DNA of 41,432 nucleotides from a virus. The translations under genes were made by a program, and so were the position numbers. The notes under the pieces were generated by a model. It worked only from the letters and a program-made list of their open reading frames with translations. It searched no databases and had not been told where the DNA came from. Numbering within the stretch: position 1 is the first letter of the stretch; the number at the start of each line of letters is the position of its first letter. Positions 2,344 through 39,485 of this stretch are shown here, piece after piece. The stretch lies in UHGV virus genome UHGV-1461890. One strand, given 5' to 3'.

Positions 2344-2660
2344 AAGCACACTACGCTAAAATTAACAAAACCGAGCCAAACGCAGCACAACGCAAAGTCT
2401 TACGGAATGAGGTGGTAAAAGAGTTTGATACCTTGCTTGAAAATTTTAACCACGATGTAATGGTGCAGATGTTATATTTGTTTCATTTTAAATATGGCTA
2501 CGGTCAAAAGAGATTGAAGCAGTTAAACAAGGATATTGCAGAAGCTCTTGACGGACTTAACGCAAGGTATGAATTATCAGTAAACGATACCGCTTGGTTA
2601 TGTGAGAAGAAACTCAAAGAAGATGGTATTGATGTAGACGAACTTTTTAAGGAGGTTTAA
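2340..2660 (+). CDS. Hypothetical 106-aa early protein
   Basis: ATGA overlap with the upstream gene. No family recognised. Confidence 0.6.
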   Translation: MKAHYAKINKTEPNAAQRKVLRNEVVKEFDTLLENFNHDVMVQMLYLFHFKYGYGQKRLKQLNKDIAEALDGLNARYELSVNDTAWLCEKKLKEDGIDVDELFKEV

Positions 2661-2662
2661 AA

Positions 2663-2899
2663 ATGGCAAAGCACAATACTTCAGCTTATATCGAATGTCC
2701 TTTTCATCATTGGTACGATGGTTGCAAATTGTGCTGTGAAGGAGTAAAAAAAGACTCTGCCATACATTTAGCTTTTTCCTCTCCTGATGAAAGGCGGCAA
2801 TATATGAAAGATGTTTGTTATAAAAACTATAGGCGATGTATTATTGCTCAGGCTTTATATAATAAACATAATAATATAAATATAAATAATAAAGGGTAA
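2663..2899 (+). CDS. Small Cys/His-rich protein
   Basis: 78 aa. AGGAGG lies about 9 nt upstream. Cys/His clusters ECPFHHW, GCKLCCEG, DVCY and RRC. Confidence 0.55.
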   Translation: MAKHNTSAYIECPFHHWYDGCKLCCEGVKKDSAIHLAFSSPDERRQYMKDVCYKNYRRCIIAQALYNKHNNININNKG

Positions 2900-2905
2900 T
2901 ATGCT

Positions 2906-3289
2906 ATGTATTATTATAATAATAAAAATAAATATAATAACAGTAAGGTAACCTTTAACGGTGAGGCCTATGATAGTCGCAAAGAGGCCAAAAGACATCA
3001 GGAACTTTTATTGCTGCAAAGAGCAGGAGAAATTAAAGACCTTCAAAGACAGGTTAAGTTTGAACTTATTCCTACCCAGCGAGAGCCTGATACCATCGGT
3101 AAGCGAGGCGGTGTACATAAGGGTAAAGTGATAGAAAATAATGTTAATTATATTGCTGACTTTGTGTATACCGATTGTCGCTCAGGTGAAAAAGTGGTTG
3201 AGGATAGCAAAGGTATGAAAACTGAAAAATATATAATAAAGCGCAAACTTATGCTTTATATTCATGGCATCAGAATATTAGAAACATAG
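2906..3289 (+). CDS. DUF1064-type protein (predicted PD-(D/E)XK Holliday-junction-resolvase-like nuclease)
   Basis: N-terminal pattern NSKVTFNGEAYDSRKEAKRHQELLLLQRAGEIKDLQRQVKFELIP, then YIADFVY, as remembered for DUF1064 phage proteins. Last gene before the packaging module. Confidence 0.6.
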   Translation: MYYYNNKNKYNNSKVTFNGEAYDSRKEAKRHQELLLLQRAGEIKDLQRQVKFELIPTQREPDTIGKRGGVHKGKVIENNVNYIADFVYTDCRSGEKVVEDSKGMKTEKYIIKRKLMLYIHGIRILET

Positions 3290-3291
3290 AG

Positions 3292-3320
3292 ATAGGAGGC
3301 TGAAAAGCCTTCTATTTTTT
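3292..3320 (+). terminator. Rho-independent terminator after the early operon
   Basis: Stem ataggaggct / agccttctat (one mismatch), loop gaaa, followed by TTTTT at 3316-3320. Confidence 0.6.
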
Positions 3321-3327
3321 ATGCAGG

Positions 3328-3366
3328 TAGGGGGGGTTTAGGATTTCATAACCTGTGTATTAAAAT
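3328..3366 (+). promoter_or_regulatory. Candidate late promoter: G7 run + TTAGGA-N17-TAAAAT upstream of terS
   Basis: TAGGGGGGGTTTAG at 3328-3341, -35-like 3338-3343, -10-like 3361-3366. The same 14-mer and the same geometry recur at 27274-27312. Confidence 0.35.
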
Positions 3367-3397
3367 ATGCGTATAGCAAAGAAGGAAGGAGTTTTCT

Positions 3398-4021
3398 GTG
3401 GATTGGGATTGGAAAAAAGTAAAGTCAGAATATATCACATCAGAAAAGTCAAGCTACAGAAAGCTTGCAGAAAAATATGATATACCACTTGGCACTCTTC
3501 AAAAGAGAGCTAAAAAAGAAAATTGGCCCGACCTCAAAAAACAAAGTGGTGACAGAACGGTTGCAAAAACCATAACAGTCATTGAGAAAAAACAAGTCGA
3601 TAAATTCAAGAGAATTCAAGATATTGCCGACAAGTTGCTCGATAAAATTGAAAAGGCTGTTGATGAGCTTGATATTCATCTTGCAAAGAAAACAATAAAG
3701 ACAAAAGAGATTGAGTATCACAATTATGAAAGACCTGACAAGCCAACGAAGGAAACCATAAACGAAACCGAGGAAATAATTGACTATCACTCTATTATAG
3801 ACCGAAAAGGTGTACAGGAACTTGCTGCCGCAATTAAGAATCTCAAAGAGGTTCAAATGCTTAAATCAGAACTTGATGAAAAAGAGCAAGAGGCACGAAT
3901 TGCTAAGCTCCAAAGGGATGCTGAGATTAACAATAACGATGACAATAAACCTCATGGAGTGGTACTTATGCCTCCTATAATGGACGACTTAACGCCACCG
4001 AAGGAGGAGACAGATGAATAA
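3398..4021 (+). CDS. terS: Terminase small subunit (HTH type)
   Basis: GTG start 7 nt after GGAAGGAG. N-terminal YRKLAEKYDIPLGTLQKRAKKENW HTH, typical of Firmicute phage TerS. Immediately upstream of TerL and overlapping it. Confidence 0.7.
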   Translation: MDWDWKKVKSEYITSEKSSYRKLAEKYDIPLGTLQKRAKKENWPDLKKQSGDRTVAKTITVIEKKQVDKFKRIQDIADKLLDKIEKAVDELDIHLAKKTIKTKEIEYHNYERPDKPTKETINETEEIIDYHSIIDRKGVQELAAAIKNLKEVQMLKSELDEKEQEARIAKLQRDAEINNNDDNKPHGVVLMPPIMDDLTPPKEETDE

Positions 4022-5480
4022 CGTTATTTGGTCACCTCAGCCAAGGCAGTTAGAGTTTATGATGCGCCCTGAAAACGAAGCCTTATATGGTGGAGCTGCC
4101 GGTGGTGGTAAATCTGATGCTTTGGTGATTGAAGCCACAAGGCAAGTACACATACCTCATTACAAGGCATTGATACTTCGTAAGACATATCCTCAGTTGA
4201 CCGAACTGATTGAAAAGTCATTAAGATATTATCCATTGGCATTTCCAAAAGCACGATACAATGCATCTGAACACACATGGTACTTCCCAAGTGGCGCAAA
4301 GATAGTATTTGGCTCAATGCAGCATAGCAAGGATAAATTAAACTATCAAGGAAAAGCGTATGATTTCGTCGCATTTGACGAATTAACGCATTTTACCTAT
4401 GAGGAATATATATATCTTTCTTCTCGTAACAGAGCAAATGGGCCGGGGACAAGGGTGTATATGAGAGCAACCGCTAACCCCGGTGGTATCGGACATGGTT
4501 GGGTTAAGGAAAGATTTATAACTGCTGCCGAGCCTATGACTACCATTTGGGAATCAGTTAAGGTTGAACACGAAGGCAAAGTTGAAGAGAGACACCGTTC
4601 GAGAATATTTGTTCCCTCTTCTGTGTTTGATAACAAGATACTTCTTGAGAATGACCCTGATTATCTAACAAGACTTGCATCTATGCCCGAAGCTGAAAGA
4701 AAAGCCTTACTCTATGGTGATTGGGATAGTTACTCAGGACAGTATTTTGCCGAATGGAGAGATAAACCCGAACATTATGACGATAGACAATGGACTCATG
4801 TTATCAATCCATTTAAGATACCTGACCATTGGAAGATATATCGCTCATTTGACTGGGGTTATAACAAACCATTCTCATGTGGTTGGTGGGCCATAGATAC
4901 AGATGGTGTTGCCTACCGTATCCTTGAGTTATATGGATGTACTCAGACCGCTAACGAAGGTCTTAAATGGACAGCAAAGCAGGTATTTGAAGAGATACAT
5001 CGTATAGAGACCGAACACGAATGGCTTAAAGGCAAACGCATTAACGGAGTAGCCGACCCTGCTATATTCTCTGCCGATGGTGGTGAATCAATAGCAGAAT
5101 CAGCTCAAAAGTGCAGAGTTTACTTTACACCGGGTGACCATCAGCGAATACCGGGATGGATGCAGATGCATTATAGGTTAGCATTTGATGAGAATGGATA
5201 CCCGATGATGTATATATTCAAAAACTGCAAAGCATTTATAAGAACGGTACCTACATTGATATACGATGACCACAAGGTAGAGGACCTCAATACAGAGGGT
5301 GAGGACCATATTGCTGACGAAACAAGGTACTTCTGTATGAGTAGACCAATTAAACCGAGGAATGCAAACAAGCCTGATGATTATACAGGCAAGAATCCTC
5401 TCAACATATTCCTTGATATACCTAAAGAGGATATTAAAACAGTTTCTCGTAGACCAACAATAATAATTAACGGAGGATAG
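4014..5480 (+). CDS. terL: Terminase large subunit
   Basis: Walker A YGGAAGGGKSDA and Walker B YDFVAFDELTH. C-terminal nuclease-type region. Sits upstream of the portal. Confidence 0.9.
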   Translation: MNNVIWSPQPRQLEFMMRPENEALYGGAAGGGKSDALVIEATRQVHIPHYKALILRKTYPQLTELIEKSLRYYPLAFPKARYNASEHTWYFPSGAKIVFGSMQHSKDKLNYQGKAYDFVAFDELTHFTYEEYIYLSSRNRANGPGTRVYMRATANPGGIGHGWVKERFITAAEPMTTIWESVKVEHEGKVEERHRSRIFVPSSVFDNKILLENDPDYLTRLASMPEAERKALLYGDWDSYSGQYFAEWRDKPEHYDDRQWTHVINPFKIPDHWKIYRSFDWGYNKPFSCGWWAIDTDGVAYRILELYGCTQTANEGLKWTAKQVFEEIHRIETEHEWLKGKRINGVADPAIFSADGGESIAESAQKCRVYFTPGDHQRIPGWMQMHYRLAFDENGYPMMYIFKNCKAFIRTVPTLIYDDHKVEDLNTEGEDHIADETRYFCMSRPIKPRNANKPDDYTGKNPLNIFLDIPKEDIKTVSRRPTIIINGG

Positions 5481-5481
5481 T

Positions 5482-7485
5482 ATGGCTTTATTTAATCGTA
5501 AAAATAAAGGCGAAGAGGCACAGAAGCAGCCTACCAATGAAGAGCAAATGCTCCTGAGACAGTCTGCACCTCAGCCTACTGCCGAAGAAGAGGCTATGAG
5601 GCTAAGGCAAGGCAAGGCTCCTGATGGGAGTATAGATGGCCTTAAAGCACTTGCTCAGGTGATTGGTAGGGAACAGGTACAAAAGGCATATCAGACTCTT
5701 CTCAAGTACAAGGAAGGCAAAGCCAACCTAGAAAAGAGAATAGTTGAGAATGAACAATGGTACAAGCTCAGGCATTGGGAGTGTATGAGAAAGCAAGAGA
5801 GTGAGGTACAGCCTGTATCAGCTTGGTTATTTAACAGTATAGCCAACAAACACGCTGATGCTATGGATAACTTCCCATCACCTAATGTGCTTCCTCGTGA
5901 AGAAGGAGACAAGGCTGAAGCTGAAATGCTTACCTCTATCCTTCCTGTAGTTCTCGACCAGAACGAGTTTGAGCAGACCTATAGTGATGTATGGGATTAC
6001 AAGCTCAAGACAGGTACAGGCGTATATGGTGTCTTTTGGGATAGTTCTAAGCTTAATGGTCTTGGTGATATAGCAATCAAGAAGATTGACCTTATAAATC
6101 TATTCTGGGAGTCAGGCATTACTGATATCCAAAGGTCACGAAACATATTCCATGTAGAACTTGCAGACAATGACATTCTTGTTCAGACATATCCCCAACT
6201 TGCAGGTAAACTTGGAACATCAACCTTAGACCTTAGCAAGTATGTATATGACGATACCGTTGATACCACCGACAAATCGGCTGTTATAGATTGGTACTAC
6301 AAAAAGAATCAGAATGGTAAAAATGTTCTTCATTATTGCAAGTTCGTAAACGATGAGGTACTATTCGCTACCGAAAACGAGCCAAACTTCACCGAAAGAG
6401 GCTGGTATGACCATGGCGAGTATCCGTTTGTATTTGACGTGTTGTTCTCGGTTGCAGGTACTCCTGCCGGATTTGGTTATATAGACGTTGGCAAGGATGC
6501 TCAAGCATACATAGACCGAGGTAGTCAGGCAATTATGAAAAATATGTTAGCCAATGCAGCACCTCGTCACTTTGTCCGTCAGGATGGTGGTGTAAATGAG
6601 GACGAATACACCGACCTCAGCAAAGATTTAGTTCATGTAGATGGCAACCTTGGTCAAGACAGCATTATGGCTATTCAGGGTAAGCCTCTCAGCAATATCT
6701 ATTTGCAGATATTGCATGACAAGATAGATGAACTGAAGGAAACCACAGGAAACCGAGATGTATCTAACGGTGGTACAACATCAGGTGCTACTGCCGCTTC
6801 TGCCATAGCAGCTATGCAAGAGGCAGGCTCTAAGTTATCTAGAGATGCTAATAAATCTGCATATCGTTCATTCAGGAAGCTTTGCCTATTGTCTATTGAG
6901 CTTATCAGACAGTTCTATGACCTACCAAGATGCTTCAGAATCATGGGTGAGAATGGCACAGCAAGATATGTTCAGTATAGCAATGCAGGGATAGCTCCTC
7001 AATCTCAGGGCACAGAGTTTGGTACTGATATGGGATTCAGGATTCCCCTGTTTGATATAGAGGTTACTGCTCAAAAGCAATCACCTTACTCAAAGATGTC
7101 GCAAAATGAACTTGCTTTGCAGTTCTTCGGAGCAGGCTTTTTTAATCCTCAGATAGCAGACCAAGCACTCGCCTGTCTTGACATGATGGACTTTGACAGA
7201 AAAGAGTTCATTATGCAAAAGATTGCTCAAAATGGCGGTATGTATCAGCAGATGATGGCTATGCAGCAACAGATGATAATGTTAGCAAAAATGGTAGACC
7301 AAGCAAGAGGAAGCAATATAGCCGAACAGTTAATGGCTCAATTCTCAGGACAGGCACCTGTACAAGCTATTGATGGTAATGCTCCTAATGTATCGGATAA
7401 AGAGGCATTGGGTGGTGATGGTGGAGAAGCCTCCACAACCAAGAAGGCAAGACAGCGAGTGGTTGAGTCTACTGACCCGACATAG
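5482..7485 (+). CDS. Portal protein
   Basis: 667 aa directly after TerL with a GGAGGA RBS. Size and position fit a portal. Q/M-rich C-terminal tail. Confidence 0.8.
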   Translation: MALFNRKNKGEEAQKQPTNEEQMLLRQSAPQPTAEEEAMRLRQGKAPDGSIDGLKALAQVIGREQVQKAYQTLLKYKEGKANLEKRIVENEQWYKLRHWECMRKQESEVQPVSAWLFNSIANKHADAMDNFPSPNVLPREEGDKAEAEMLTSILPVVLDQNEFEQTYSDVWDYKLKTGTGVYGVFWDSSKLNGLGDIAIKKIDLINLFWESGITDIQRSRNIFHVELADNDILVQTYPQLAGKLGTSTLDLSKYVYDDTVDTTDKSAVIDWYYKKNQNGKNVLHYCKFVNDEVLFATENEPNFTERGWYDHGEYPFVFDVLFSVAGTPAGFGYIDVGKDAQAYIDRGSQAIMKNMLANAAPRHFVRQDGGVNEDEYTDLSKDLVHVDGNLGQDSIMAIQGKPLSNIYLQILHDKIDELKETTGNRDVSNGGTTSGATAASAIAAMQEAGSKLSRDANKSAYRSFRKLCLLSIELIRQFYDLPRCFRIMGENGTARYVQYSNAGIAPQSQGTEFGTDMGFRIPLFDIEVTAQKQSPYSKMSQNELALQFFGAGFFNPQIADQALACLDMMDFDRKEFIMQKIAQNGGMYQQMMAMQQQMIMLAKMVDQARGSNIAEQLMAQFSGQAPVQAIDGNAPNVSDKEALGGDGGEASTTKKARQRVVESTDPT

Positions 7486-7497
7486 TGAGGTGACTAT

Positions 7498-7842
7498 ATG
7501 ATAAAAGTACAGTTTGAACATCGAAAGGATATAAACACTATCGTTATGAAGGTAGAAGGCCATGCAGGACAAGCCACAAAAGGCAATGATGTTATATGCT
7601 CTGCTGCATCTATCCTCGTATATACGGTAGCACAGTACCTCAACTTTATTTATAAACGAGGAGGCCTTCAGAAGAAGCCTCGTATCCTGCTAAATGACGG
7701 AGATGCGCTGATAGTAGCCAAGCCTAAGAGTGAATTTGAGGGCGAAGTGCTAAACACGTTTTTCGTTGCTGAGGTGGGATACTCGCTACTCGCACACAAT
7801 TACCCACAGTATGTGAAACTTAAAATGTTTGGTGAGGCTTAA
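7498..7842 (+). CDS. prp: Prp-type (ribosomal-processing cysteine protease family) protease, phage-encoded
   Basis: 114 aa with the VEGHAGQATKGNDVICSAASIL His/Cys dyad pattern of the Prp (DUF464) family. Lies between portal and scaffold. Confidence 0.75.
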   Translation: MIKVQFEHRKDINTIVMKVEGHAGQATKGNDVICSAASILVYTVAQYLNFIYKRGGLQKKPRILLNDGDALIVAKPKSEFEGEVLNTFFVAEVGYSLLAHNYPQYVKLKMFGEA

Positions 7843-7897
7843 AGCCTTAAATATATACCAAAAGTCTCGCTCACTTACGAGCAGAAAGGAAAAATAT

Positions 7898-8863
7898 ATG
7901 ATTCATTTTATCAAACCTATGCACCTAAATCTTCAGCTTTTCGGTGAAGGCACCGGAACAGGTGGAGATGGTGGCACAGGTGCAGAAGGAAGTCAGGGCG
8001 TAACCGAGGTAGCCGCCATACCTCAAATCAAAAGCCGAAAAAGTAATCCTCTTGCTGATACCAAGTATGGTATCCAAGACGATGCAGCACAAGTCGCTGA
8101 TGTGCAAACCAAAGTAACCGATGCAGATGGTGTTACAACTGAAACTGTTGACCGTAATGCTGAATTTGAAAAGCTCATCAAGGGTGAATACAAGGACCTT
8201 TACGATGCCAAAGTTCAGGACACCATTCAAAAAAGGCTTAAAAGCTCAAAGGAAACCGTTGAGAAGTATAACGCTCTCTCCCCTACTCTCGAAATGCTGA
8301 GTAAAAAGTACGGTGTAGATGCTTCTGATATTGATGCCTTAAACAAGGCTATTCAAGAAGACGACTCTTATTATGAGGAAGAGGCCATGGAAAAGGGCAT
8401 CTCCGTACAGCAGTTAAAAGAGATTCGCAGAATGGAAAGAGAAAATGCTGACCTGAAGAGACAAATGCAGGAGCAATCCGTAAAGGAAAATGCTTCAAAA
8501 CTCTACGCTTCGTGGATGAATCAGGCAGAACAGCTTAAAGCGGTTTATCCATCTTTTGACCTTGAAACTGAGATGAGAAATCCAAAATTTGTAGACTTAC
8601 TCCGAGTGCCGAGTATTGATGTAAGAACTGCTTATGAGGTCTTACATAAGGATGAAATAATCCCGGCAGCCATGCAGTTTACTGCTCAGACAGTCGAGCG
8701 TAAACTTGCTAATAAGATAATGGCAAATGGAGCAAGGCCCTCAGAGAATGGTATGAACTCTCAGAGTGCAGCGGTAGTTAAGAGCGATGTGTCACAGCTC
8801 TCCAAAGCCGACCGTCAGGAAATTGCAAGACGTGTCGCACGAGGAGAAAAGATACGATTCTAA
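7898..8863 (+). CDS. Scaffolding protein with an N-terminal Prp-type leader
   Basis: The ATG at 7898 follows AAAGGA; the listed 7829 start overlaps prp and has no RBS. MIHFIKPMHLNLQLFGEG leader, then a Gly-rich and long acidic/coiled-coil body. Sits between protease and capsid. Confidence 0.7.
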   Translation: MIHFIKPMHLNLQLFGEGTGTGGDGGTGAEGSQGVTEVAAIPQIKSRKSNPLADTKYGIQDDAAQVADVQTKVTDADGVTTETVDRNAEFEKLIKGEYKDLYDAKVQDTIQKRLKSSKETVEKYNALSPTLEMLSKKYGVDASDIDALNKAIQEDDSYYEEEAMEKGISVQQLKEIRRMERENADLKRQMQEQSVKENASKLYASWMNQAEQLKAVYPSFDLETEMRNPKFVDLLRVPSIDVRTAYEVLHKDEIIPAAMQFTAQTVERKLANKIMANGARPSENGMNSQSAAVVKSDVSQLSKADRQEIARRVARGEKIRF

Positions 8864-8926
8864 CTACATCTATCTAATCTCCTTGTAAATACACACAAAT
8901 TACAAAATACAAAGGAGATTAAAACC

Positions 8927-9949
8927 ATGAAAAACATTTTTAAAATCAACCTTCAGCTCTTCGCTGAAATGAACACTCAGGTAACCACACAGTCTTCTCT
9001 CACACCTGAGATGAAGACCTACTATGACATGACCCTCATTGACGAGGCAAGTGCAAAGCTTGTACATGACCAGTTCGGTCAGAAGAAGCCTATTCCAAAG
9101 GGCAGCGGTAAAACCATCGAGTTCCGTAAGTTCTCACCTCTTGGTAAGGCTACCACACCTCTTACTGAAGGTGTTACTCCTAACGGTAACAGCCTGACTG
9201 TAACTGCTATCACCGCTACTGTTGCTCAGTATGGTGACTACATCGTACAGTCTGATGTGCTTGAACTCACCTCTCTCGATAACACAATTATCGAGGCTAC
9301 CAAGCTCTTAGGTAATCAGGCAGGTCTCACTCTTGATACCATCACTCGTAACATTCTTCAGGCAGGTACTAACGTATCATATTGTCCTAAGATTGCTGCT
9401 GACGGTACTGAGACAGAGGTTACATCTCGTGCTACACTCGATGCTACTTGTCAGCTTACTGTTGATATGGTACAGAGAGCAGTAACTAAGCTCAGAGCGC
9501 AGAACGCTCCTACCATTGATGGTGACTATGTTGCTATTATCCATCCTTATGTTGCTTATGACCTCATGAGAGACAAGGAATGGATTGAGGCTCACAAGTA
9601 TGCTACTCCCGAAAACATCTATGCAGGTGAAATCGGCAAGATAGCAGGTTGCCGCTTCGTACAGTCCACCGAGGCTAAAATTTATAAGGGTGATGGTTGT
9701 CCTACAGGCCTTGCTGTATTCGGTACTCTCTTCTTAGGCTCAGGTGCTTATGGTGTAACTGAGATTACAGGCGGTGGTTTGCAGACTATCGTTAAGCAGA
9801 AGGGTTCTGCCGGTACTGCTGACCCACTTGACCAGAGAAGCTCTGTAGGTTGGAAGGCTATTAAGACTGCTGAAAGACTTGTAGAAAACTACATGGTTCG
9901 TGTAGAGTCTTGCTCTAAGAGATACTCTGCAACAGCAGTAGCTAACTAA
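8927..9949 (+). CDS. Major capsid protein (HK97-fold type) with an N-terminal Prp-type leader
   Basis: 340 aa with a strong RBS (AAAGGAG). Leader MKNIFKINLQLFAE. High-expression codon look. Follows the scaffold. Confidence 0.85.
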   Translation: MKNIFKINLQLFAEMNTQVTTQSSLTPEMKTYYDMTLIDEASAKLVHDQFGQKKPIPKGSGKTIEFRKFSPLGKATTPLTEGVTPNGNSLTVTAITATVAQYGDYIVQSDVLELTSLDNTIIEATKLLGNQAGLTLDTITRNILQAGTNVSYCPKIAADGTETEVTSRATLDATCQLTVDMVQRAVTKLRAQNAPTIDGDYVAIIHPYVAYDLMRDKEWIEAHKYATPENIYAGEIGKIAGCRFVQSTEAKIYKGDGCPTGLAVFGTLFLGSGAYGVTEITGGGLQTIVKQKGSAGTADPLDQRSSVGWKAIKTAERLVENYMVRVESCSKRYSATAVAN

Positions 9950-9957
9950 TTAAACTT

Positions 9958-9981
9958 GGGGGAGGGATAACTCCCTTCCCC
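9958..9981 (+). terminator. Hairpin after the capsid gene (partial terminator or attenuator)
   Basis: 10-bp stem gggggaggga / tcccttcccc with one G-U pair, loop taac, followed by a T-rich ttctcatttt. Confidence 0.45.
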
Positions 9982-24900: not shown

Positions 24901-27265
24901 GGTTGAGCAGCTTGGTACTGATACAATGGTCTTCCTAAAATACTTAGGAGAACACAAGCAGTCTAACTCTATTGTGGACTTTGTTACATGGGACAATGCA
25001 CTTCCTTATTACACATTTAAACGCTTCGGTGAAGGCGGCGAATCTGTGTTTGAAGAGCTTATGGATGCTCAGGATAAATTGGCTTATCTTGCTGACGGTA
25101 TCTTCAAGTTTAAAGAAAATACTTGGACCGATAAAGAGGCAAGTGAGTGGAGCAAGGATACCCACACAATCAAATTACCGAGTGGTAGAGAGCTAACCTT
25201 AACCTCAGCCGATGCCATGTCAATTTACTGCCTATCACGAAGAGACCAAGGTAAGCAGCATTTGCTCGGCGGTGGTGTGAGAGTATTAGGTATCGAAAAG
25301 AATGGTAAAAAGGCTAATGACAGTAGGTCTCTGTTAAATCAGCAGGATTTAGTGGCAATAGCTAACTCCTTAACCGAAAGGCAAAAAAAGGTTGCCGAGG
25401 CTATTCAGCGATATATGTCAACCACTTGTGCTGAGTGGGGTAACGAAATCTCTATGAAGCGTTTCCTCACAAAAGAATTTAATGAACAATTCTACTTTCC
25501 TATTGAGTCTAACGATGAAAACCTCGACACAAAGGACCCGAAGGCCCAGCAGAGTGACCTTTATAGATTGCTTAATATTTCTGCTACCAAGCCTTTAACA
25601 AAGGGTGCAAACAACGAGGTTATAATCCGTAATGTGTTTGATGTGTTTGCTAATCATTCATCAGATATGGCTAAACTGAATGCTTTTGGTATGGCTCTCC
25701 TTGATTACATGAAGTGGATTAACTATCGTGTAAAGACTGTTAATGATGACGGACAAATCAGCGTTAGCGGTGTTCGTAAATCAATGGAAAAAGCCTACGG
25801 TTCAGAAGCCAATAAGTATGTGCTAAGTCTCATCAAGGATATAAATGGTCGCTATAACGATAATGGTGACAATAAGTTCCTTATGAAGATGATTCGTGGC
25901 GCTAAGACTGTTATGGTAGGTAATAACCTGAGAGTAGCGTTGTTACAGTTCACAGCATATCCAAGAGCCGCTATGGTACTTTCAAACAAGAGTCTTGCAT
26001 TAGGTCTCACTAAAGTGCCTCAGATTGAAAAAGCAAAGAAATATTGTGGCATTGCTTTGTGGAAATCGTTTGGTTTCTATGATACTAACATTTCTAAAAG
26101 CATAGAGGAGCAAATCAAGGGTGCAACGAACATTAGGCAAAAACTTATTGAGTTATCCTTAAAGGGCGCTGAATGGGGAGATGCAATCACATGGGGTTGC
26201 TTATGGAATGCCTGTGAGTATGAGGTTGCTAAAACCAATAAATACAAGGTTGGCTCCGAAGAGTTTAATCAGGCAGTAGGTAAAAAGCTTCGTGAGGTTG
26301 TATATGCGACTCAGGTTGTAGACTCTACTTTAACAAGGTCGCAGATGATGAGAAGCAAGAGTGGATTAAACCAAACCGCTTCAGCCTTCATGTCAGAGCC
26401 TACACTATCCGCTAATATGCTTATGGATGTTGCCTTCCAATTTAATCTTGAAAAGCGTAGGACAGGCTCAGCAAAGGCTGCTTGGAAAAAGACAAGTAAA
26501 TATGTCGGCAAGGCAGTAGGAGTTTACTGTGTAGTTCAGTTATTTGCTGCATTAGCAGAGAGCCTTATGGATGCTTATAGAGACGATGACGATGAGGAGT
26601 TTAAGAAGAAGTTCGGAGAGGCATTTAAAGAAAATGCTATATCCGACCTTAATCCAATCAACAAAATTCCTATTGTTGCAGATATTTCTGAAATGCTATT
26701 GTCTTTGACAGGTATAGGATACTATTCATCAGACAGTTTATACTCAACCGCTATCGATGAATTTAAAAATGTTTTTGAAACATGGCAAAAGGTTATAAAT
26801 GGTGAGGATGGTAAAACTGTTTATGCCGGTATCTATTCAACCACAAAGCTTTTATCCTACATAACAGGTGTATCAGGAAGCGGCTTAATGCGAGAGGTTG
26901 TTACCCTTTGGAACAACACAGCCGGTGCTGCTGACCCTTATTTGAAGATTAGGACATACGAAACCTCATCCACCGATAAAGGCATAGCAGAGTATCAGTT
27001 TGATAAGGGTGATACTGCCTCAGTTAAAACTACTATATCAAAAATGATTAAGGATAAAGTAAAGTCGGGCAAAACTGAAAAAGAAGCCAAATCTGCTGTA
27101 AGGTCCTCATTCACAAGCACTTATAAACCTGAATATATGGTTGCTGTAAAATCAAAAGATTATGACGAGATGAATCGCATAAGAAAACTCCTTTATGCAA
27201 CAGACTTATATGGCACATTATCCGAGCTTGACGAGACCTTGAAAAAGTGGCGCACAACTGAGTAG
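15917..27265 (+). CDS. Giant polyvalent protein, 3782 aa: hydrophobic Gly-zipper region, zincin metallopeptidase (HELTH), PBECR/MuF-C-like segment, unassigned central module, ART-PolyVal-like ADP-ribosyltransferase domain, long C-terminal region
   Basis: One stop-free 11349-nt frame with an AAGGAGGG RBS. Gly/Ala-rich hydrophobic segment at 17227-17810. HELTH at 19238-19252, preceded by NGFYKNGEIYIDLNAG. KPHDLSPEEVIGIIRAMNNPSHLVF around 19985. LSKEQQEFFKDSKVRDEKGNLKIMYHGT..GTGSYFT..DIRYSERD at 22400-23010. Confidence 0.8.
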   Translation: MGAKDVYEQLKREKQQGNSKAKKVYAQMMQSKIIDEFNSLIKHNSDFYNKTKSRFYDEDDNFIDIYRSDSEDWKNTAVSMSSSAREKSTNIRSLLDEYGSYYDADTVSSMLKTLDEHEKFSTDIVKQAVEQHDYFSEYKDENDYNQKVVIPKNQNEEWASANTEALKTEIGNLETSYKAYSELKSKRNLRSSQLISNYIKSGYTRDEAVKLAAKDKDIIEYDKKLSVYGDMSNAEKSLSEKKQFYNNATRVQEGLSLSGITDPSSKHYDPNYLKYSAKGEAMGDEKNGGFFTPDTQRKNQVAYLRNNPDMLELYEETANDANGASWGTSERILLDQIEYKAAKYMTDEEFLIYNAYLGKGDKESADKYLESIEETLTSRQGAAISEQQDTWLKKQLFSVYAGLDQWEQGIISLGNTEGKYDSPTGVQFASGTIREDLGAIGQGAYDLGVTTGNMLPSILVSYLTSGVGGAVGLGAKAAGTLGKVAGAATLGSSAAGNGYQEMLNLGYDKSQAQAYGTLVGLSEAGLEYVLGGISSLGGTVSGGITDKVVTKLVSNMDKAIAKVAIGAGGKLVGSMVSEFGEEYLQEVLDPVFKNITLNTDEDIRLFSSEALYAGILGALSAGLLEGGSSISGEVATYKAGKDVKNTGQLSNLKKFGTSFSADTVAYKIASQVDENTDAYTIGQLLHEVGADSLSEANIADIVKSLERKNISPEHAQTIAEWLNASVQGEVFNPLQRLALKNPDIAQTFKDVIINQNSTVNQRMQSYTDILQNIANEKEIIKANKSKAKAEKKANKTKTTEETKTTPFVPLSNEAITASKIESLAKELESEGVSPELAQVMAQRKVSESSEGKSVADTENAIENKFETNLDGQTLNTKTGDSVNVSEIASIKDGKMTLKLDNGETVDADDISFGTEDEGLIYSTVLDMGVNAAVANSLVKNYSPSDKLSARQYALGIKEAYKYGSYGMPINEISKNGFAADLSEAQRTHAYNLGKSDRTAKVEKAQKEVQKVVSGKNGIEGKVHFKGDELALKEVQRESLKRMGILSEVLGLNFHVFESYVDKNGKRVYKDTDGKIKKAPNGFYKNGEIYIDLNAGKDGQGIMIYTVAHELTHWIREWSPAKFKVLADFLFEQYGKGNRNVNKLIEDQITNAKNNGRTIDYDTAYEEVVADSMETMLSDDNVLEKIMLLKSKDESIIKKIGEFFEKIINSFKNLMQKYPPETTEGKLVSQMNDAFEELQSLFAEALVDASNNYQANKGQKNTTSEGDVKLQARELQRKDPTTLKEDELTTLLEYTKDKVLSDDTYIPVRINTPQILIAFAKEFGYTLENHPLAMQVYKARQALSNEENWDGDYQDKPHDLSPEEVIGIIRAMNNPSHLVFQTENERFAEIVKFEKEGSKEKAYAIVDFSDVNKNPDLMNGYKGGKYNILVTVYPSEDAADLKRYLSNKNHKVLTGEQMKKKGLSQGSYGGNTPSLLNDSPFFEDSIPQTSKKSQEKLSGRENFIGERNLEDFAEAKDTEGKTLFQYRAMESDEDVYREMLKTANIMSDSEINALFDTVDRAMDIIKDNLEILDYAWETDIDDRAFNPVKKNTDKLYQVSVDFSTLCRKRLLQQAIQAHLQEALNRPLTKNEGIAIRDALMTIQEEGKQIEIACALCYVESARMKSPAQIKRFIDGRETVIKNYFAGKSAEVKAQLKEAEAKARERLGVYDTPLTKLPSKAQKDIRGAKKDVISSYVPSAKEQELIEIAKGMSVNDFVTPKGLETLIKKYPDLFDAYASFIVNATHSKGIENDTWWRAGDSKNIGDTLIANMNAENGLRSQSWSDFQVIHLLDYMAATIELSTRKAKMQTYTKVPDFVELMGSTGEMINLSLIPTRNFNGTLDFDGIEGMEFEESLRLRDKYHATAGTIAIGVDNVQIQMLLDSMNIDYVIPYHRSGMAKAVRKAMHIPTWTEYENYQSEKNLSRDAAREQAKKYGVKLLSESDSNYQKHPNFSDWFDITEARQIAKMENSTPSDKAMAKKYGVMYGGYKAMQNAANNYLRLCAERSISPKFSHENANFTTEANYWKLLIDRKMIDNVTGEVIEQQAVKPIFDQGEVLRILNDELERYPSVKADQDYATRKVTENFLSGNIKGGMSAEAIAKAMKKSVDNIAKVNILASMGDSKLSDRDSEGNTLSKEQQEFFKDSKVRDEKGNLKIMYHGTSKGGHTVFDTYGSNYGLFGTGSYFTDNRDIAESYTKKGKGNNQQVYDTYLNITNPIDMDAQADVSKWEKQFPDADFSNCTTNEECYRAMEEWLEDEMLPKWEAAEIAIDGLQEMGYDGVTHIGGGRVNTDSTRHRVYIAFDSNQIKETTNTNPTSDPDIRYSERDAIESENKILDLESQISEIEEQLSEDIFDEIPDDERKKMNNQLWKLRNELQKLEKAEREATVKTSLSEIRDNLDKYRYIDLRSLAEGLGWEEYADLSKTQLANALRESLNEIEQEWKEDETSDFNSAKDGMWIRPISEEESNKVIKVKFQDRDADTTENIEKINKQLAKENLKLIEDVKYLKELVKLQGKETHGKVLKKSTVELVAKRLMTYVSARGNTSELVGHLTNVYNYIIQGEDVSWEGIQEKAEAAADWLMQNEHHKPVRDDVANEILHYLRTTGISFDSGQKQEAAYRYDSFNNFRKKNMGRLKITNDGLPLDMAWQELASMYPGYFDPEVNSNDQPLVLMDIIDGLQNTYELDDYHYYSDEMIKQDLLMKIYEGYWDVSALHTVADAKQKEINLLKAKHRESMDSLRQTHAEADAKLRQEHKDKISQLRSQYREREEKKVQKVAEYYQKSRKEAVDRVKESREKRDAITKLQRLVLDTAKWVSYPAKDAVKCPDIIKVPYAEFLESIDLSSKRLLSGGEPTQNDLRVASAMDSLAKAIEQKLGTQRPDTDTETVLDTGYLDLPVHFVENLKELAESLKKRMATDGHIVNSMTSTEIRDLTKFIRTLNHSIKEMSTLYANMRFAKVEQLGTDTMVFLKYLGEHKQSNSIVDFVTWDNALPYYTFKRFGEGGESVFEELMDAQDKLAYLADGIFKFKENTWTDKEASEWSKDTHTIKLPSGRELTLTSADAMSIYCLSRRDQGKQHLLGGGVRVLGIEKNGKKANDSRSLLNQQDLVAIANSLTERQKKVAEAIQRYMSTTCAEWGNEISMKRFLTKEFNEQFYFPIESNDENLDTKDPKAQQSDLYRLLNISATKPLTKGANNEVIIRNVFDVFANHSSDMAKLNAFGMALLDYMKWINYRVKTVNDDGQISVSGVRKSMEKAYGSEANKYVLSLIKDINGRYNDNGDNKFLMKMIRGAKTVMVGNNLRVALLQFTAYPRAAMVLSNKSLALGLTKVPQIEKAKKYCGIALWKSFGFYDTNISKSIEEQIKGATNIRQKLIELSLKGAEWGDAITWGCLWNACEYEVAKTNKYKVGSEEFNQAVGKKLREVVYATQVVDSTLTRSQMMRSKSGLNQTASAFMSEPTLSANMLMDVAFQFNLEKRRTGSAKAAWKKTSKYVGKAVGVYCVVQLFAALAESLMDAYRDDDDEEFKKKFGEAFKENAISDLNPINKIPIVADISEMLLSLTGIGYYSSDSLYSTAIDEFKNVFETWQKVINGEDGKTVYAGIYSTTKLLSYITGVSGSGLMREVVTLWNNTAGAADPYLKIRTYETSSTDKGIAEYQFDKGDTASVKTTISKMIKDKVKSGKTEKEAKSAVRSSFTSTYKPEYMVAVKSKDYDEMNRIRKLLYATDLYGTLSELDETLKKWRTTE

Positions 27266-32110: not shown

Positions 32111-33607
32111 CTAAATATCGTGAAAATAAATAGCTAAATTGCCTTTAGCCTTTTCAAATACAACCTTTTCAATTATTGTGCGTAACGCTTCATTCTTAGC
32201 CCGAGGTGTTACATCTTCCCTTTTTATGAACTCAAGTATGCCTACAACCTTTTCAGAGAAGGCATCTATGTCAATATCCTTAACTATGACCTTATCCCTA
32301 TCCTGCTTTAATTTCTCAATCTTAGTGGTTATTTCAGCCTTATTATTACCATACTGTTCAATGGTATCAATTTCGGCAAGGTAAGCCTCCTTTGCTCTTT
32401 CAAGCCTTCTTTCCTCTAAGGCTATGAGCTTATCATAGTCTATGGTAGGCTTTTCAGTTTGCTTAGGTGCTTTGGGTGTGATGTTAAATTGTTGGCTTCC
32501 TATGGCCTGTTCTAAACCTTTAATAAAGGCGCTTTCTAATTTAATCATACTGATAGAGTGAGATGTGTGACAAGAGCCTCTTGAATAGTTGCAACATTGT
32601 AAGGAGTGTGTTTTTTTCTTTGCAGCAAGATTCCTTGTTCCGTTATAAGCAAGTGTCGCTCCACAAGCACTACATCTAACAAGCCCTTTAAGGATATAAT
32701 CAATAGGTTGCTGCCTCCGAGCATGTTTAGAATACAACAATTTCATAGTTTGCAATCTTTCCTGAACCTTATCCCACAGTTCCATTGATATAAGTGGTTG
32801 CCAATTACCATCAATAATTTGGATGTTTTCATTGAGATAATCCCTTTTACTTACTACCTTTGAACCATCAGGTGTCCATCTGATTTTACCTATATAAGCA
32901 GGATTCCATAAAATATACTCTATCCACCTATTATCAGGTATATTACCTCTTTTGGTACGAACTCCTCTCTGCCCGAGCGAAATTGTAATTTCTCTCATAC
33001 CTTCACCATCAGCAAACCTTTGAAATATTTCTTTGATAACATCGGCAGCACCGCTTTCTACATCGGGAAGATAGGTTTTATCACCATTTATGTATCCAAA
33101 AGGAGCAAATACAGCAGGCTCTCCTCTGCTTACCTTTTCTTCCATGCCTCTTGATACTTCAGCGCCGAGGTTGATAAGGTAAAATTCATCCATCCATTCT
33201 ATAATTCTCTCCATGAGGCTTCCAAAAGGACCTTCAGGTATAGGCTCTGATACAGATTTAACCGATATGCCTATCTTTTGAAGCAAGTTTTTATATACTA
33301 TACTTTGCTCTTGGTTTCTTGCAAAACGAGATAACTTCCACACATATATAATATCAAAGGGATGATTTTTCTCCTTTGCCATGGCTATCATCAAGTTAAA
33401 GTTATCTCTTTTCTTTACGCTCTTTCCTGAGATACCATCATCATAAAATACATACTCATCAGGGATTAAATAACCTTCCCTTGCTGCAAATTCTCTGATT
33501 TTTTTGAGCTGAGAATCAGGACTGTATTCATCTTGCCTTTCATCCGATACACGAACATAGGCAGCTCCTATTTTTAATAATTCGTTTTCCACTTTATCAC
33601 TCCTCAT
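32111..33607 (-). CDS. int: Large serine recombinase (phage integrase)
   Basis: N-terminal resolvase motif GAAYVRVSDERQ..SPDSQ, a recombinase domain, a Cys-rich zinc ribbon (CSACGATL..CCNYSRGSC) and a C-terminal coiled coil. A GTG at 33592, preceded by GAGGAG, is an alternative start. Confidence 0.9.
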   Translation of the reverse strand: MRSDKVENELLKIGAAYVRVSDERQDEYSPDSQLKKIREFAAREGYLIPDEYVFYDDGISGKSVKKRDNFNLMIAMAKEKNHPFDIIYVWKLSRFARNQEQSIVYKNLLQKIGISVKSVSEPIPEGPFGSLMERIIEWMDEFYLINLGAEVSRGMEEKVSRGEPAVFAPFGYINGDKTYLPDVESGAADVIKEIFQRFADGEGMREITISLGQRGVRTKRGNIPDNRWIEYILWNPAYIGKIRWTPDGSKVVSKRDYLNENIQIIDGNWQPLISMELWDKVQERLQTMKLLYSKHARRQQPIDYILKGLVRCSACGATLAYNGTRNLAAKKKTHSLQCCNYSRGSCHTSHSISMIKLESAFIKGLEQAIGSQQFNITPKAPKQTEKPTIDYDKLIALEERRLERAKEAYLAEIDTIEQYGNNKAEITTKIEKLKQDRDKVIVKDIDIDAFSEKVVGILEFIKREDVTPRAKNEALRTIIEKVVFEKAKGNLAIYFHDI

Positions 33608-34440: not shown

Positions 34441-34866
34441 CTAATCGTTTTTCTTCATGTAATAGTTATGCAAAGATATAATCTCTTCTTTATGGTCGAG
34501 TTTTAACCGTAATATGTCATTTTCGGATGTTAGCACTCCAACTTTGTCCTTAAGCATGACATTCTCAGCGGTTAAAAGTACAAGTTCGCTGCTGAGCCTT
34601 TCAACTTCAGCAGTAAGTTTGTCAACTTCTTCGTGCAGCATAGTGTAATTTTTACTGCCGATAACCACATTACTCTCGGCAAATAATTCGCCCATAGATA
34701 TGCCAAGAACGTCTGCAATTCGGTGAAGAGTAATAGCTTGTGGAGAGGGCGTTTCACCTGAAAAGATACGAGATACGGTCCTTTCGGGGAATTTTGACTC
34801 TTGAGCGATATATTTATAAGTATAACCAAGTTCTTTTCGTCTTTCTCTTATAATGTCAAGCCACAT
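34441..34866 (-). CDS. XRE-family HTH regulator with a C-terminal leucine-zipper-like coiled coil
   Basis: N-terminal GYTYKYIAQESKFPERTVSRIFSGETPSPQAITLHRIADVLGISMGELF HTH. C-terminal heptads VDKLTAEVERLSSELVLLTAENVMLKDKVGVL. Confidence 0.75.
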   Translation of the reverse strand: MWLDIIRERRKELGYTYKYIAQESKFPERTVSRIFSGETPSPQAITLHRIADVLGISMGELFAESNVVIGSKNYTMLHEEVDKLTAEVERLSSELVLLTAENVMLKDKVGVLTSENDILRLKLDHKEEIISLHNYYMKKND

Positions 34867-35121: not shown

Positions 35122-35298
35122 ATGTCAAACAATCTTATAGAACTTCTAAGTATTATTCTTGAAAGCGGTAACCCGGAACAAGCAGTTCATACCGTAGCCA
35201 ATGTTATTTTTGGTCATTCATCTCAGCACGAATCGCACCGAGAAGAAATCTCTGTGTGTCAGGAGACATTTTGTCAAACGAAAGTGCCACCTCGATAA
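35122..35298 (+). CDS. Candidate 58-aa ORF below the track cutoff, convergent with and overlapping the repressor 3' end
   Basis: ATG at 35122 follows GGAAGGGG (35107-35114). Translates to MSNNLIELLSIILESGNPEQAVHTVANVIFGHSSQHESHREEISVCQETFCQTKVPPR. Its last 95 nt are antisense to CDS 35204-35620. Confidence 0.25.
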   Translation: MSNNLIELLSIILESGNPEQAVHTVANVIFGHSSQHESHREEISVCQETFCQTKVPPR

Positions 35299-35620
35299 GA
35301 AGTTTTTTCGCATCGTCAGAAAGTAGACGGTATAATTCTAACCATTTCCTCTCACCCTCGGTAAGCTCCTGCTTGTCGGGGGATTGTGTTTCTTTCTCCA
35401 TTGGAACATCATATCCCATTAACCATGCCTCGCTGACATCTAAGGCGTTTGCAATAAGAAATATCCTGTCCTGCTTAGGCTCAAACGCACCACTTATATA
35501 TTGACTTATAGCGCTTTTAGGTATTCCTGTAAGAGTACAAAGGTCAGATTGTTTCATATTTCTTATGGATAATGCCCTTGATATTCTTTTAGCACAGGTC
35601 TCTTTTCCGTTACTCATCAT
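35204..35620 (-). CDS. CI-type phage repressor (XRE HTH)
   Basis: HTH LSIRNMKQSDLCTLTGIPKSAISQYISGAFEPKQDRIFLIANALDVSEAWLMGYD. The ATG at 35620 follows AGAGG; the listed start at 35626 is a GTG inside the RBS. Divergent from the cro-like gene. Confidence 0.8.
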   Translation of the reverse strand: MMSNGKETCAKRISRALSIRNMKQSDLCTLTGIPKSAISQYISGAFEPKQDRIFLIANALDVSEAWLMGYDVPMEKETQSPDKQELTEGERKWLELYRLLSDDAKKLLIEVALSFDKMSPDTQRFLLGAIRAEMNDQK

Positions 35621-35647
35621 TTTCACCTCTTCAATATATTACCATAT

Positions 35648-36330: not shown

Positions 36331-36561
36331 ATGATTATTGAATCTTGGATAGCAGCAATCATTATGATTGCCCTTGCACTTATAGGAATTGTAGCTCTTT
36401 TTATGTCAATAGTAGAAGGCCAAAGGCTCGAAGACGCCAACCACCAGATTAAAAGACTTGAACACGAAAATGGCGAACTGAAGCGCTATATAGCAGTGCA
36501 AAGGACAAAGAACATCATAGGTGTGGCAAATGATTTTAATAACGAAGGGAAGAAAAAGTAA
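36331..36561 (+). CDS. Small bitopic membrane protein with a coiled-coil tail
   Basis: N-terminal helix WIAAIIMIALALIGIVALFMSIV, then QIKRLEHENGELKRYI. AGGAG RBS. Its stop overlaps the exonuclease start. Confidence 0.55.
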   Translation: MIIESWIAAIIMIALALIGIVALFMSIVEGQRLEDANHQIKRLEHENGELKRYIAVQRTKNIIGVANDFNNEGKKK

Positions 36562-37496
36562 TGTACAAGAATCTTACCAAAATCTCTACTGTGGGTATGC
36601 CTCACGAAGTGTGGTTGGAGCATAGGCAAAAATCAATCGGTGGCTCGGATGCCTCAGCAATACTCGGTATGAATACATATTGCTCACCTTATACAGTATG
36701 GGCGGACAAGCTCGGTAAACTTCCTCCGAAGGAAGATAACGAGGCTATGAGGCTCGGAAGAGACCTTGAAGACTATGTTGCTAAACGCTTTACCGAAGAG
36801 ACCGGGAAAAAGGTTAGACGAGAAAACAATATCATTATCAATCCCCTGCTCCCCTTTGCTCATGCCAATGTCGATAGGATGGTAGTTGGTGAGGATGCAG
36901 GTCTCGAATGTAAGACCACATCGGTTATGAATCTTAAAAGATTTAAAAACGGAGAGTATCCTGAAAACTACTATGTGCAATGTGTCCACTACCTCATGGT
37001 AACAGGTGCTAAAAGATGGTACTTAGGTGTTCTAATCCTCGGTGTAGGATTTAAGTGGTTTGTAATTGAGCGAGACGAGGATGAGATTAAAGCTCTTGCT
37101 AAGTCTGAGGAAGCCTTTTGGGAACATATTAAGAACAACACTCCTCCCGAAACTGATGGCTCCGAGTCAACCTGTGAAACACTTACCACTATTTACCCTG
37201 AATCAAATGGTAACACAGTAAATCTCTTTGCTTATGAGGATAGCCTAAAACAATATATTGCCATCGGTAAGCAGATTGACGAGCTTAAAAAACTCAGGGA
37301 TGAGATGGCAAACAATGTTAAGGCATTTATGGGTGAAGCAGGTAAAGGTGAATCAAACCACTTTAAAGTATCTTGGAGTTCTTCACTCCGAAGCACTTTT
37401 GACCATAAAAAATTTGCATCAGATAATCCAAATCTTGATTTAACTCAGTATTACAAATCGTCAACCACTCGTACTTTTCGAGTAATAGAAATATAA
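36561..37496 (+). CDS. YqaJ-type viral recombinase exonuclease
   Basis: WLEHRQKSIGGSDASAILGMN..SPYTVWADKLG signature and PD-(D/E)XK-type core (ANVDRM..GLECKT). Adjacent to recT. Confidence 0.85.
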   Translation: MYKNLTKISTVGMPHEVWLEHRQKSIGGSDASAILGMNTYCSPYTVWADKLGKLPPKEDNEAMRLGRDLEDYVAKRFTEETGKKVRRENNIIINPLLPFAHANVDRMVVGEDAGLECKTTSVMNLKRFKNGEYPENYYVQCVHYLMVTGAKRWYLGVLILGVGFKWFVIERDEDEIKALAKSEEAFWEHIKNNTPPETDGSESTCETLTTIYPESNGNTVNLFAYEDSLKQYIAIGKQIDELKKLRDEMANNVKAFMGEAGKGESNHFKVSWSSSLRSTFDHKKFASDNPNLDLTQYYKSSTTRTFRVIEI

Positions 37497-37510
37497 AGGA
37501 GAAATTTAAT

Positions 37511-38353: not shown

Positions 38354-38702
38354 TATTGTCCTTAACCACTTAAAAAGTGGTAAGGAAATAACTCAGTTAG
38401 AGGCTACTCAAAAATATCGCATATTAAGGCTTGGAGCCATCATCTTTAACCTTCGCAAAGATGGTTATATCATTTCAACACGAATTGAGCATAAGCCTAA
38501 TCAATATGGAAACATCTCAAATTATGCAGTATATAAACTCTTGCTTAAAAAATACCTCATCGAATGGGAGACCTGCTATAACGAGGATTTTCCCGAACAA
38601 AGAGGCGAGATGATTGTTGAAGCCATAAACGAAGAAGAGGCTGCTAAACAGTTTGATGTGTTCCATGCAGTAATAATAGGAATAAGTGAGGTTAAAGGAT
38701 AA
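38313..38702 (+). CDS. Winged-helix/HTH-like DNA-binding protein, 129 aa
   Basis: ITQLEATQKYRILRLGAIIFNLRKDGYIISTR resembles a recurrent phage wHTH domain. Overlaps the recT 3' end, so the exact start is uncertain. Confidence 0.5.
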   Translation: MMEQTVQKKLSQYDIVLNHLKSGKEITQLEATQKYRILRLGAIIFNLRKDGYIISTRIEHKPNQYGNISNYAVYKLLLKKYLIEWETCYNEDFPEQRGEMIVEAINEEEAAKQFDVFHAVIIGISEVKG

Positions 38703-39470: not shown

Positions 39471-39485
39471 TGGGAGGTATAGTCA

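Follow-up and report, generated by a model that had tools for sequence, protein, structure and literature searches.

A phage-encoded Prp-family protease beside a putative scaffold and a major capsid protein that begin with L27-type leaders

In Staphylococcus aureus the protease Prp removes the leader of ribosomal protein L27, and the published motif is MLxx(D/N)LQ(F/L)F'A(S/H)KK, where the apostrophe marks the cut (PMC9405229). The same host enzyme cuts the capsid protein gp47 and the scaffold protein gp46 of phage 80α at an L27-like motif; procapsids of this phage already hold the cut proteins, and the scaffold leader is needed for assembly (PMC5744158). A phage-encoded enzyme of this kind is known from Streptococcus phage Cp-1, whose orf13 is given as a prohead protease of MEROPS C108, clan CR, in PMC12445089, and processing of the major head protein by the Cp-1 protease has been shown experimentally (Martin et al. 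1998, via PMC12445089 and PMC9405229). Here we analyse UHGV virus genome UHGV-1461890, a stretch of 41,432 nucleotides that we call the window, in which a Prp-family gene of the phage stands between the portal gene and two head genes, those of a putative scaffold and of the major capsid protein, both of which begin with leaders of the L27 type. We consider it likely that the phage Prp removes both leaders and takes the place of a serine prohead protease. The features concerned are the following.

7498..7842, + strand: gene of the Prp-family cysteine protease, 114 amino acids (Pfam, PHROG, PDB and fold matches)
7898..8863, + strand: gene of the putative scaffolding protein, 321 amino acids (position, composition, helical prediction, shared architecture)
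7898..7942, + strand: scaffold leader MIHFIKPMHLNLQLF, 15 amino acids, with a predicted cut after Phe15 (7940-7942), before Gly-Glu-Gly
8927..9949, + strand: gene of the major capsid protein, 340 amino acids (phrog_1357, Pfam Phage_capsid_3/4)
8927..8962, + strand: capsid leader MKNIFKINLQLF, 12 amino acids, with a predicted cut after Phe12 (8960-8962), before Ala-Glu-Met

The locus has in common with 80α the enzyme family with its His/Cys dyad and the presence of 12-15-residue (N/D)LQxF'A leaders on scaffold and capsid (PMC5744158, PMC9405229), and neither phage has a serine prohead protease (here, none in the open reading frames (ORFs) scanned). It differs from 80α in that the protease of the latter is an essential host gene located between rplU and rpmA, whereas here it is a phage copy located between portal and scaffold, and in that its head proteins have no Pfam-level homology to those of 80α, the scaffold lacking a DUF4355 match. 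With Cp-1 it shares a phage-encoded His/Cys protease of about 100 residues and of the Prp family, orf13 having TGHGDDTDQSCARVS (G-H...C). However, orf13 has diverged strongly and falls short of the PF04327 cut-off with 18.5 bits, its gene is distant from that of the capsid, and the Cp-1 scaffold has no leader motif; the cited removal of 48 residues puts the cut at ..ARINH'ATV.., where there is no L27-like motif. The HK97-type (S78/U35) and ClpP-like (S49/S14) proteases resemble the phage Prp in gene position, after the portal and ahead of scaffold and capsid, and in their presumed trimming of head proteins, but are unrelated to it in fold and catalytic type. They are packaged and, from within the procapsid, cut off entire delta or scaffold domains, whereas Prp takes off only a short leader.

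The Prp ORF runs from an ATG at 7498 to a stop at 7842 and encodes 114 residues, including VEGHAGQATKGNDVICSAAS; the product begins MIKVQFEHRKDINTIVMKVEGHAGQATKGNDVICSAAS, and the codons of His22 and Cys34 lie at 7561-7563 and 7597-7599. It is preceded by a GAGGTG ribosome-binding site, and the portal stop codon lies 12 nucleotides upstream. The product matches PF04327 (Peptidase_Prp, formerly DUF464/YsxB) with E = 1.2e-13 and 51.6 bits, for a gathering cut-off of 27 bits, and the alignment is full-length, from residues 1-107 on profile positions 1-90 of 90. It also matches phrog_4478 'peptidase' and, in phmmer, the Prp structure 2idl of S. pneumoniae (E = 6e-6). Nine residues (G21, H22, A23, G24, G29, D31, C34, S38 and Y42) are invariant in an alignment of 35 Prp homologues at 61-87% identity (alignment A1). 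In S. aureus Prp the catalytic dyad is His22/Cys34, the P3 Gln is bound by two residues of the mobile loop, Gly29 and Asp31, and the groove is lined by Ser38 and by residue 42, which is aromatic (PMC9405229); the dyad and the substrate-contacting sites have the same numbering in the phage enzyme. An AlphaFold2 model built on alignment A1 has a mean predicted local distance difference test score (pLDDT) of 93.6 and the ββαββαβ topology of C108 (E2-9, E14-20, H30-53, E62-66, E69-74, H78-101 and E106-109, with E for strands and H for helices); the score is low only at residues 21-30, in the mobile loop (Gly21-Asp31, between His and Cys). When this model was compared with the PDB by Foldseek, 14 chains were matched at E = 5e-8 to 1e-4, every one a Prp (SMU.848, S. 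pneumoniae 2idl, S. aureus 4PEO/7JVS/7KLD and T. maritima 1S12, with 7JVS and 7KLD being substrate-bound structures), and nothing else in the PDB fell below E = 0.04. By every computable criterion, the product thus belongs to the Prp family (PF04327 / MEROPS C108, clan CR). Ribosomal orthologues are recognised by a gene located between rplU (L21) and rpmA (L27). Here and in the relatives the gene sits instead between phage portal and scaffold genes, inside the head operon, and is therefore a phage paralogue.

In the scaffold frame, NLQLF occupies 7928-7942 and is followed by GEG, giving the N-terminus MIHFIKPMHLNLQLF'GEGTGTGGDGG; the ATG at 7898 is the plausible start of this gene, rather than the TTG at 7829 called mechanically by the ORF finder. 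The capsid gene starts with an ATG at 8927, after an AAGGAG ribosome-binding site, and its product has the N-terminus MKNIFKINLQLF'AEMNTQ, with NLQLF at 8948-8962. Both leaders fit the type of L27 and 80α, with about 8-15 residues, a (D/N)-L-Q-(F/L)-F end and a small residue next, while the basic P2'-P4' residues of L27 are present neither in these two proteins nor in those of 80α. Synonymous codons differ between the two leaders (AAT and AAC for Asn, CTT and CTC for the second Leu), so the motif has been kept at the protein level and does not result from a recent DNA duplication. The original prediction had placed leaders ending in NLQLF at exactly these coordinates, before GEG and AEM, and the motif turned out to be conserved in relatives. 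Its Prp-like phage gene (GHAG..VICSAAS) is upheld by family score, catalytic residues and predicted fold; the alignment to the Prp/DUF464 profile, on which it had made the identification depend, runs end to end at 51.6 bits, and its account of the processing of L27 and 80α proteins by S. aureus Prp is correct (PMC9405229, PMC5744158).

The motif is rare in this genome. Six-frame translation of the 41,432 bases places the pattern [LIVMF]N[LIVM]Q.F in real ORFs at two sites only, the N-termini of scaffold and capsid, and no further site with the strict motif occurs in the 3,782-residue candidate polyvalent protein or in the other virion proteins. From composition, NLQLF is expected about 0.006 times in the whole proteome (37 ORFs) and about 3e-4 times within the first 20 residues of any of these ORFs. 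Two loose matches, LALQFFG in the portal (residues 544-550, window 7111-7131, overlapping a terminator-like hairpin at 7111-7136) and another at residue 2443 of the giant ORF, are probably due to chance.

The identity of the two head proteins is unequally supported. The capsid matches the major head protein family phrog_1357 (3.6e-92), and Phage_capsid_3/4 of Pfam above the cut-off. The scaffold candidate matches phrog_13908 (2e-90), whose function is unknown, and has no Pfam match at E <= 0.01, including PF14265 (DUF4355). Its N-terminal third is disordered and rich in Gly, Asp and Glu, and the following part is all-helical; a single-sequence AlphaFold2 model shows long helices at low confidence. 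There is also weak BLASTP similarity, in a coiled-coil region, to the DUF4355/gp46-type scaffold of Lactobacillus prophage Lj965. We thus regard 7898-8863 as a putative scaffold gene given its position, composition, helical prediction, weak similarity to the Lj965 protein and the architecture common to relatives.

Relatives of the locus were sought in viral contigs, where a single Prp sequence used as query gave no matches and alignment A1 was needed. With the latter, IMG/VR yielded 29 loci with 38-63% Prp identity. All those long enough downstream have the order Prp, scaffold and capsid, with both leaders ending in (N/D)LQL(F/L) before Ala or Gly. We aligned 35 distinct leaders (from 17 scaffold and 18 capsid relatives) so that their predicted cuts coincide. 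Positions P6-P1' (I/L, N/D, L, Q, L, F, then A) carry 2.7-4.0 bits of information, against about 1.1-1.6 bits for P7-P16, and the leaders are between 8 and about 18 residues long. Conservation restricted to P6-P1' in leaders of variable length is typical of recognition sites and not of structural N-termini. Among the capsid relatives, P1' is always Ala (18/18), and P3 Gln and P1 Phe are each found in 17/18. These results bear on the hypothesis that the leaders resemble Prp sites by chance, or that an inactive Prp relic lies beside unrelated N-termini. The shortness of the motif speaks for it, and nothing else does; against it stand the very low number of occurrences expected from composition, the conservation of the motif in all relatives while its flanks vary, the invariant catalytic residues, and a confident model matching Prp structures. 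It is so improbable that, as far as computation goes, we take it as refuted.

With a capsid alignment as query, IMG/VR gave at least 558 relatives, and we analysed the 80 best loci. A Prp profile hidden Markov model matches 1-1.4 kb upstream of the capsid gene in 70 of the 80, and His and Cys are present in all 70. Nine of the other ten loci end too soon upstream. The tenth, L119 (IMGVR_UViG_3300045988_046659, high-GC; genes 2068-2349, 2498-3436 and 3465-4535), was considered as a natural Prp-less relative, a reading that we dropped because a degenerate, short-loop Prp-like ORF occupies the position: it has 93 residues and scores 15.8 bits, which is sub-threshold, and its loop between His and Cys is greatly shortened (DHGQTDVC). 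The leaders of L119 lack P3-P5 (N-L-Q), reading ..ARLF'DGEGG and ..ASLF'ATLNTN, and these sequences suggest that enzyme loop and substrate may have changed together. In another locus, L025 (5379-5978, 5939-8335), the capsid frame ends at 200 residues and an ORF of 799 residues comes next, which could reflect a frameshift, a chimeric assembly or an exchange of modules.

Within one genome, scaffold and capsid have variants of the motif in common, namely IQIF, IQHF, FIQLF, LQLM, DIQRF, CLQLF and NLRLF'D. Some lie well away from the L27 consensus (in L116/L117, L079, L093, L113, L122 and L055-L067), such as NLRLF'D with Arg at P3 and Asp at P1' (as in L116), LQLM'A with Met at P1 (L079), and DIQRF'A (IQRF'A in L093). 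The Prps of these lineages are still above the Pfam cut-off, at 43-62 bits. Leaders of the type (F/Y)IQ(I/L/H)F, which also differ from the L27 consensus, accompany the Prp loop GHTGFAE.G.DPVC; among relatives, no simple rule relates loop length to the leader P3 residue. In 49 distinct genomes, scaffold and capsid of the same genome are identical at 4.76 of the 7 positions P6-P1', against 3.90 ± 0.10 after capsids have been reassigned among genomes, and the observed identity was reached in 0 of 10,000 shuffles; the few mis-called scaffold ORFs in this table work against the signal. In Mantel tests on 43 curated genomes (L043-L122), the distance between leader motifs correlates with Prp distance (r = 0.48) and little with mature-capsid distance (r = 0.11), and the partial correlation with Prp given capsid distance (r = 0.48) was reached by 0 of 5,000 permutations, values that, like those of the shuffles, are inflated by common descent and perhaps by the joint transfer of Prp and scaffold as one module. 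In these genomes Prp has evolved at about twice the rate of the capsid (mean p-distances of 0.66 and 0.34). These comparisons of sequences are supportive of the pairing, short of deciding it.

The same layout exists in cultured phages. A tblastn search against them gave one unannotated record at E <= 1e-3, and more with a limit of 5, of which four were checked with Pfam and confirmed. A Prp-like ORF lies directly after the portal in Lactobacillus prophage Lj965, in Oenococcus phages phiS13, phi9805, phiS11 and Krappator, in Lactococcus phages PLgT-1 and TP712, and in Dorea phage DO134P1; the Prps of Lj965, phiS13, PLgT-1 and DO134P1 score 57-71 bits. The two leaders are ..LKLDLQRF'ADEG and ..LQLDLQRF'ATP in Lj965, ..LLNLQRF'AEGG and ..TVNLQRF'ADI in phiS13, ..LKLNLQLF'AGGQ and ..LKFNLQRF'AGD in PLgT-1, and MANLQLF'AEGD and ..KLGLQVF'TAP in DO134P1. 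These phages thus resemble the window in the succession of portal, Prp, and scaffold and capsid with (N/D)LQ(R/L)F'A leaders. Yet their capsids belong to Phage_cap_E (Lj965) or Phage_capsid/Phage_capsid_4 (PLgT-1), their scaffolds to DUF4355 (the family of 80α gp46), an extra minor head gene separates Prp from scaffold, and P2 is mostly Arg. Since the capsids differ, the pairing spans several capsid and scaffold families. The Prp genes of these phages are labelled merely 'peptidase' (phrog_4478) or are unannotated. In DO134P1 (OP172779.1; L033 ~3440-3760, between DO134P1_00011 and _00010), the unannotated Prp ORF scores 67.7 bits and the next gene starts with MANLQLF'AEGDG; this Prp is a gene missed in the deposited genome.

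How the phage Prp would act can be proposed from its likeness to the S. aureus enzyme. As a His22/Cys34 endopeptidase, it would bind the leader (L/I)-N-L-Q-L-F in its groove and cut after Phe. If the S. aureus complex (PMC9405229) is taken as a guide, the P1 Phe would stack on His22 and the P3 Gln would be held by Gly29/Asp31, with hydrophobic residues at P4 and P6 and a small one at P1'. The capsid would lose 12 residues, leaving 328 and a new N-terminus AEMNTQ, and the scaffold would lose 15, leaving 306 and a new N-terminus GEGTG. Before its removal, the scaffold leader may serve folding or assembly, as in 80α (PMC5744158). The cleavage itself, its sites (F'G and F'A), the part of the phage enzyme beside or instead of the host Prp, and the timing relative to procapsid assembly are points that we infer.

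Several points weigh against removal of the leaders by the phage Prp, besides the inflation of the co-variation tests. For the phage and its close relatives, the case for cleavage is built on sequence and model. The scaffold assignment has position and composition as its chief basis, and the scaffold has Gly at P1' instead of Ala, as do 2/17 of its relatives. Cleavage is dispensable in 80α (PMC5744158), so the essential role of the leader may be in assembly. Finally, the L27 leaders of Clostridia have NLQLF'A as their consensus (PMC9405229, Table 2), which means that cutting by the host Prp is possible too, and if it does the job the phage Prp could be redundant or serve another purpose. This last point qualifies the earlier description of the locus as a self-contained set: the phage indeed carries its own Prp and two leader-bearing head genes, but the host enzyme may take part. 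The accompanying claim that the usual HK97-type prohead protease is not used agrees with our scan, in which neither Pfam nor PHROG gave a match to S78, U35 or S49/S14 (ClpP-type) proteases in the ORFs covered, several small early ORFs (35204-35626, 38313-41352) being outside the scan.

The host Prp might thus remove the leaders, the phage copy being an unrequired dose booster or an insurance where the host enzyme is scarce or differently specific. The hosts are Clostridia, which have a long L27 and encode their own Prp (PMC9405229), the window motif is the same as in their L27 leaders (PMC9405229, Table 2), and the host Prp in the 80α system accepts phage leaders with P' residues unlike those of L27 (PMC5744158). 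Yet essentially every relative has kept the phage Prp with intact catalytic residues. Moreover, lineages exist where the motif is far from that of L27 in both substrates together (NLRLF'D, LQLM'A, IQRF'A), and the divergence of the motif tracks that of the phage Prp. The L27 leader of L. johnsonii is ..EALKLF'A (PMC9405229, Table 2), from which the DLQRF'A of Lj965 differs, an argument for the phage's own Prp as the cognate enzyme in Lj965. On balance, we find it unlikely that the host enzyme alone accounts for leader removal.

The phage Prp might also be mainly directed at the host, for example at the maturing or over-processing of L27 and at translation late in infection or in lysogens, with the leaders acting as assembly or chaperone signals. 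There is some precedent for this, because an acquired protease rescues L27 processing in S. pneumoniae TIGR4 (bioRxiv 10.64898/2026.08.10.744006), although that enzyme is an unrelated Ntn hydrolase, and because 80α can assemble without cleavage of its scaffold leader but not without the leader itself (PMC5744158). But Prp lies within the head operon, between portal and scaffold, in every lineage examined, two co-varying substrates are found directly downstream, and nothing in the window indicates a ribosomal role. This makes a host-directed function very unlikely, and removal of both leaders by the phage Prp remains the reading that we favour.

We tentatively put forward a further possibility, an orthogonal, co-evolving protease-substrate pair made up of the phage Prp and the leaders of the two head proteins, free of the specificity of host L27 and Prp and able to drift. 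New codes would then have appeared in some lineages, including P3 Arg with P1' Asp, P1 Met, P2 Arg, and the loss of P3-P5 along with a shortened enzyme loop. If such pairs exist, Prps of prophages might mature host L27, backing up in lysogens an enzyme that is under study as an antibiotic target.

The arrangement is real and widespread, and not unusual, as it is found in hundreds of uncultured relatives and in cultured phages of lactic-acid bacteria and Dorea. Nor does it reveal a new mechanism, since its kind is known from 80α and Cp-1, and databases (phrog_4478, RefSeq) already label such phage genes 'peptidase'. In the searchable literature we found no account in which a Prp encoded by a phage is matched with scaffold and capsid leaders of the L27 type, though one may exist. 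The only mention in the 2025 and 2026 preprints of the laboratory that discovered Prp is of an extension in some staphylococcal phages. The 2026 'alternate protease' preprint was dropped as a precedent, its enzyme being an Ntn hydrolase and not a Prp. Equally, the term 'phage-related' in the name of Prp was set aside as a reference to phage-encoded homologues, because its authors mean the cleavage of phage proteins.

With phage-encoded enzymes, Prp-dependent head maturation would extend from one staphylococcal phage that borrows its host's protease to very many phages of Firmicutes that have their own. A simple annotation rule follows: where the portal gene is succeeded by one encoding about 100 residues with GH.G...D..C, and the next head genes carry (N/D)LQxF'A, the N-termini of the mature capsid and scaffold proteins can be predicted. 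The co-varying proteases and leaders also make up a natural data set on Prp specificity. Mobile copies of Prp bear on proposals for narrow-spectrum antibiotics against this enzyme, although their relevance is modest.

The window, which is one entire contig, comes from a temperate phage of about 41 kb that infects Clostridia (Oscillospiraceae and relatives). Related Prp genes are present in contigs of metagenome-assembled genomes of Oscillospiraceae, Ructibacterium, Candidatus Limivicinus and unclassified Eubacteriales/Clostridia (L034-L042), some of them 130-260 kb long, which indicates both the temperate lifestyle and the hosts. Its head operon has the order terminase, portal, Prp, scaffold and capsid, and the remaining features that we delimited are these.

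4014..5480, + strand: terminase large subunit, at the start of the head operon (Pfam Terminase_6N, phrog_979)
5482..7485, + strand: P22-like portal protein (Pfam P22_portal 1e-31, phrog_156)
9958..9981, + strand: strong intrinsic-terminator-like hairpin directly 3' of the capsid gene (consensus scan)
32111-33607, - strand: large serine recombinase, lysogeny module
34441-34866, - strand: repressor-like helix-turn-helix protein, lysogeny module
36561-38353, + strand: RecE-like exonuclease and RecT-like annealing protein, recombination module

The consensus scan gave no terminator-like site on the + strand from the Prp gene to the end of the capsid gene, the hairpin at 9958-9981 coming next, so Prp, scaffold and capsid are probably co-transcribed. 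On the 3' side of the head genes lie those of an internal virion protein, of tail proteins and of a BppU-type fibre; a tape measure protein was not detected in the phage. The endolysin is an Amidase_3-SPOR protein. A single ORF of 3,782 residues (15917-27265, + strand) makes up 27% of the genome. Its sole Pfam match, at residues 2188-2354, is to ART-PolyVal, the ADP-ribosyltransferase of polyvalent proteins, and its sequence suggests a giant 'polyvalent' protein that would be part of the virion or injected.

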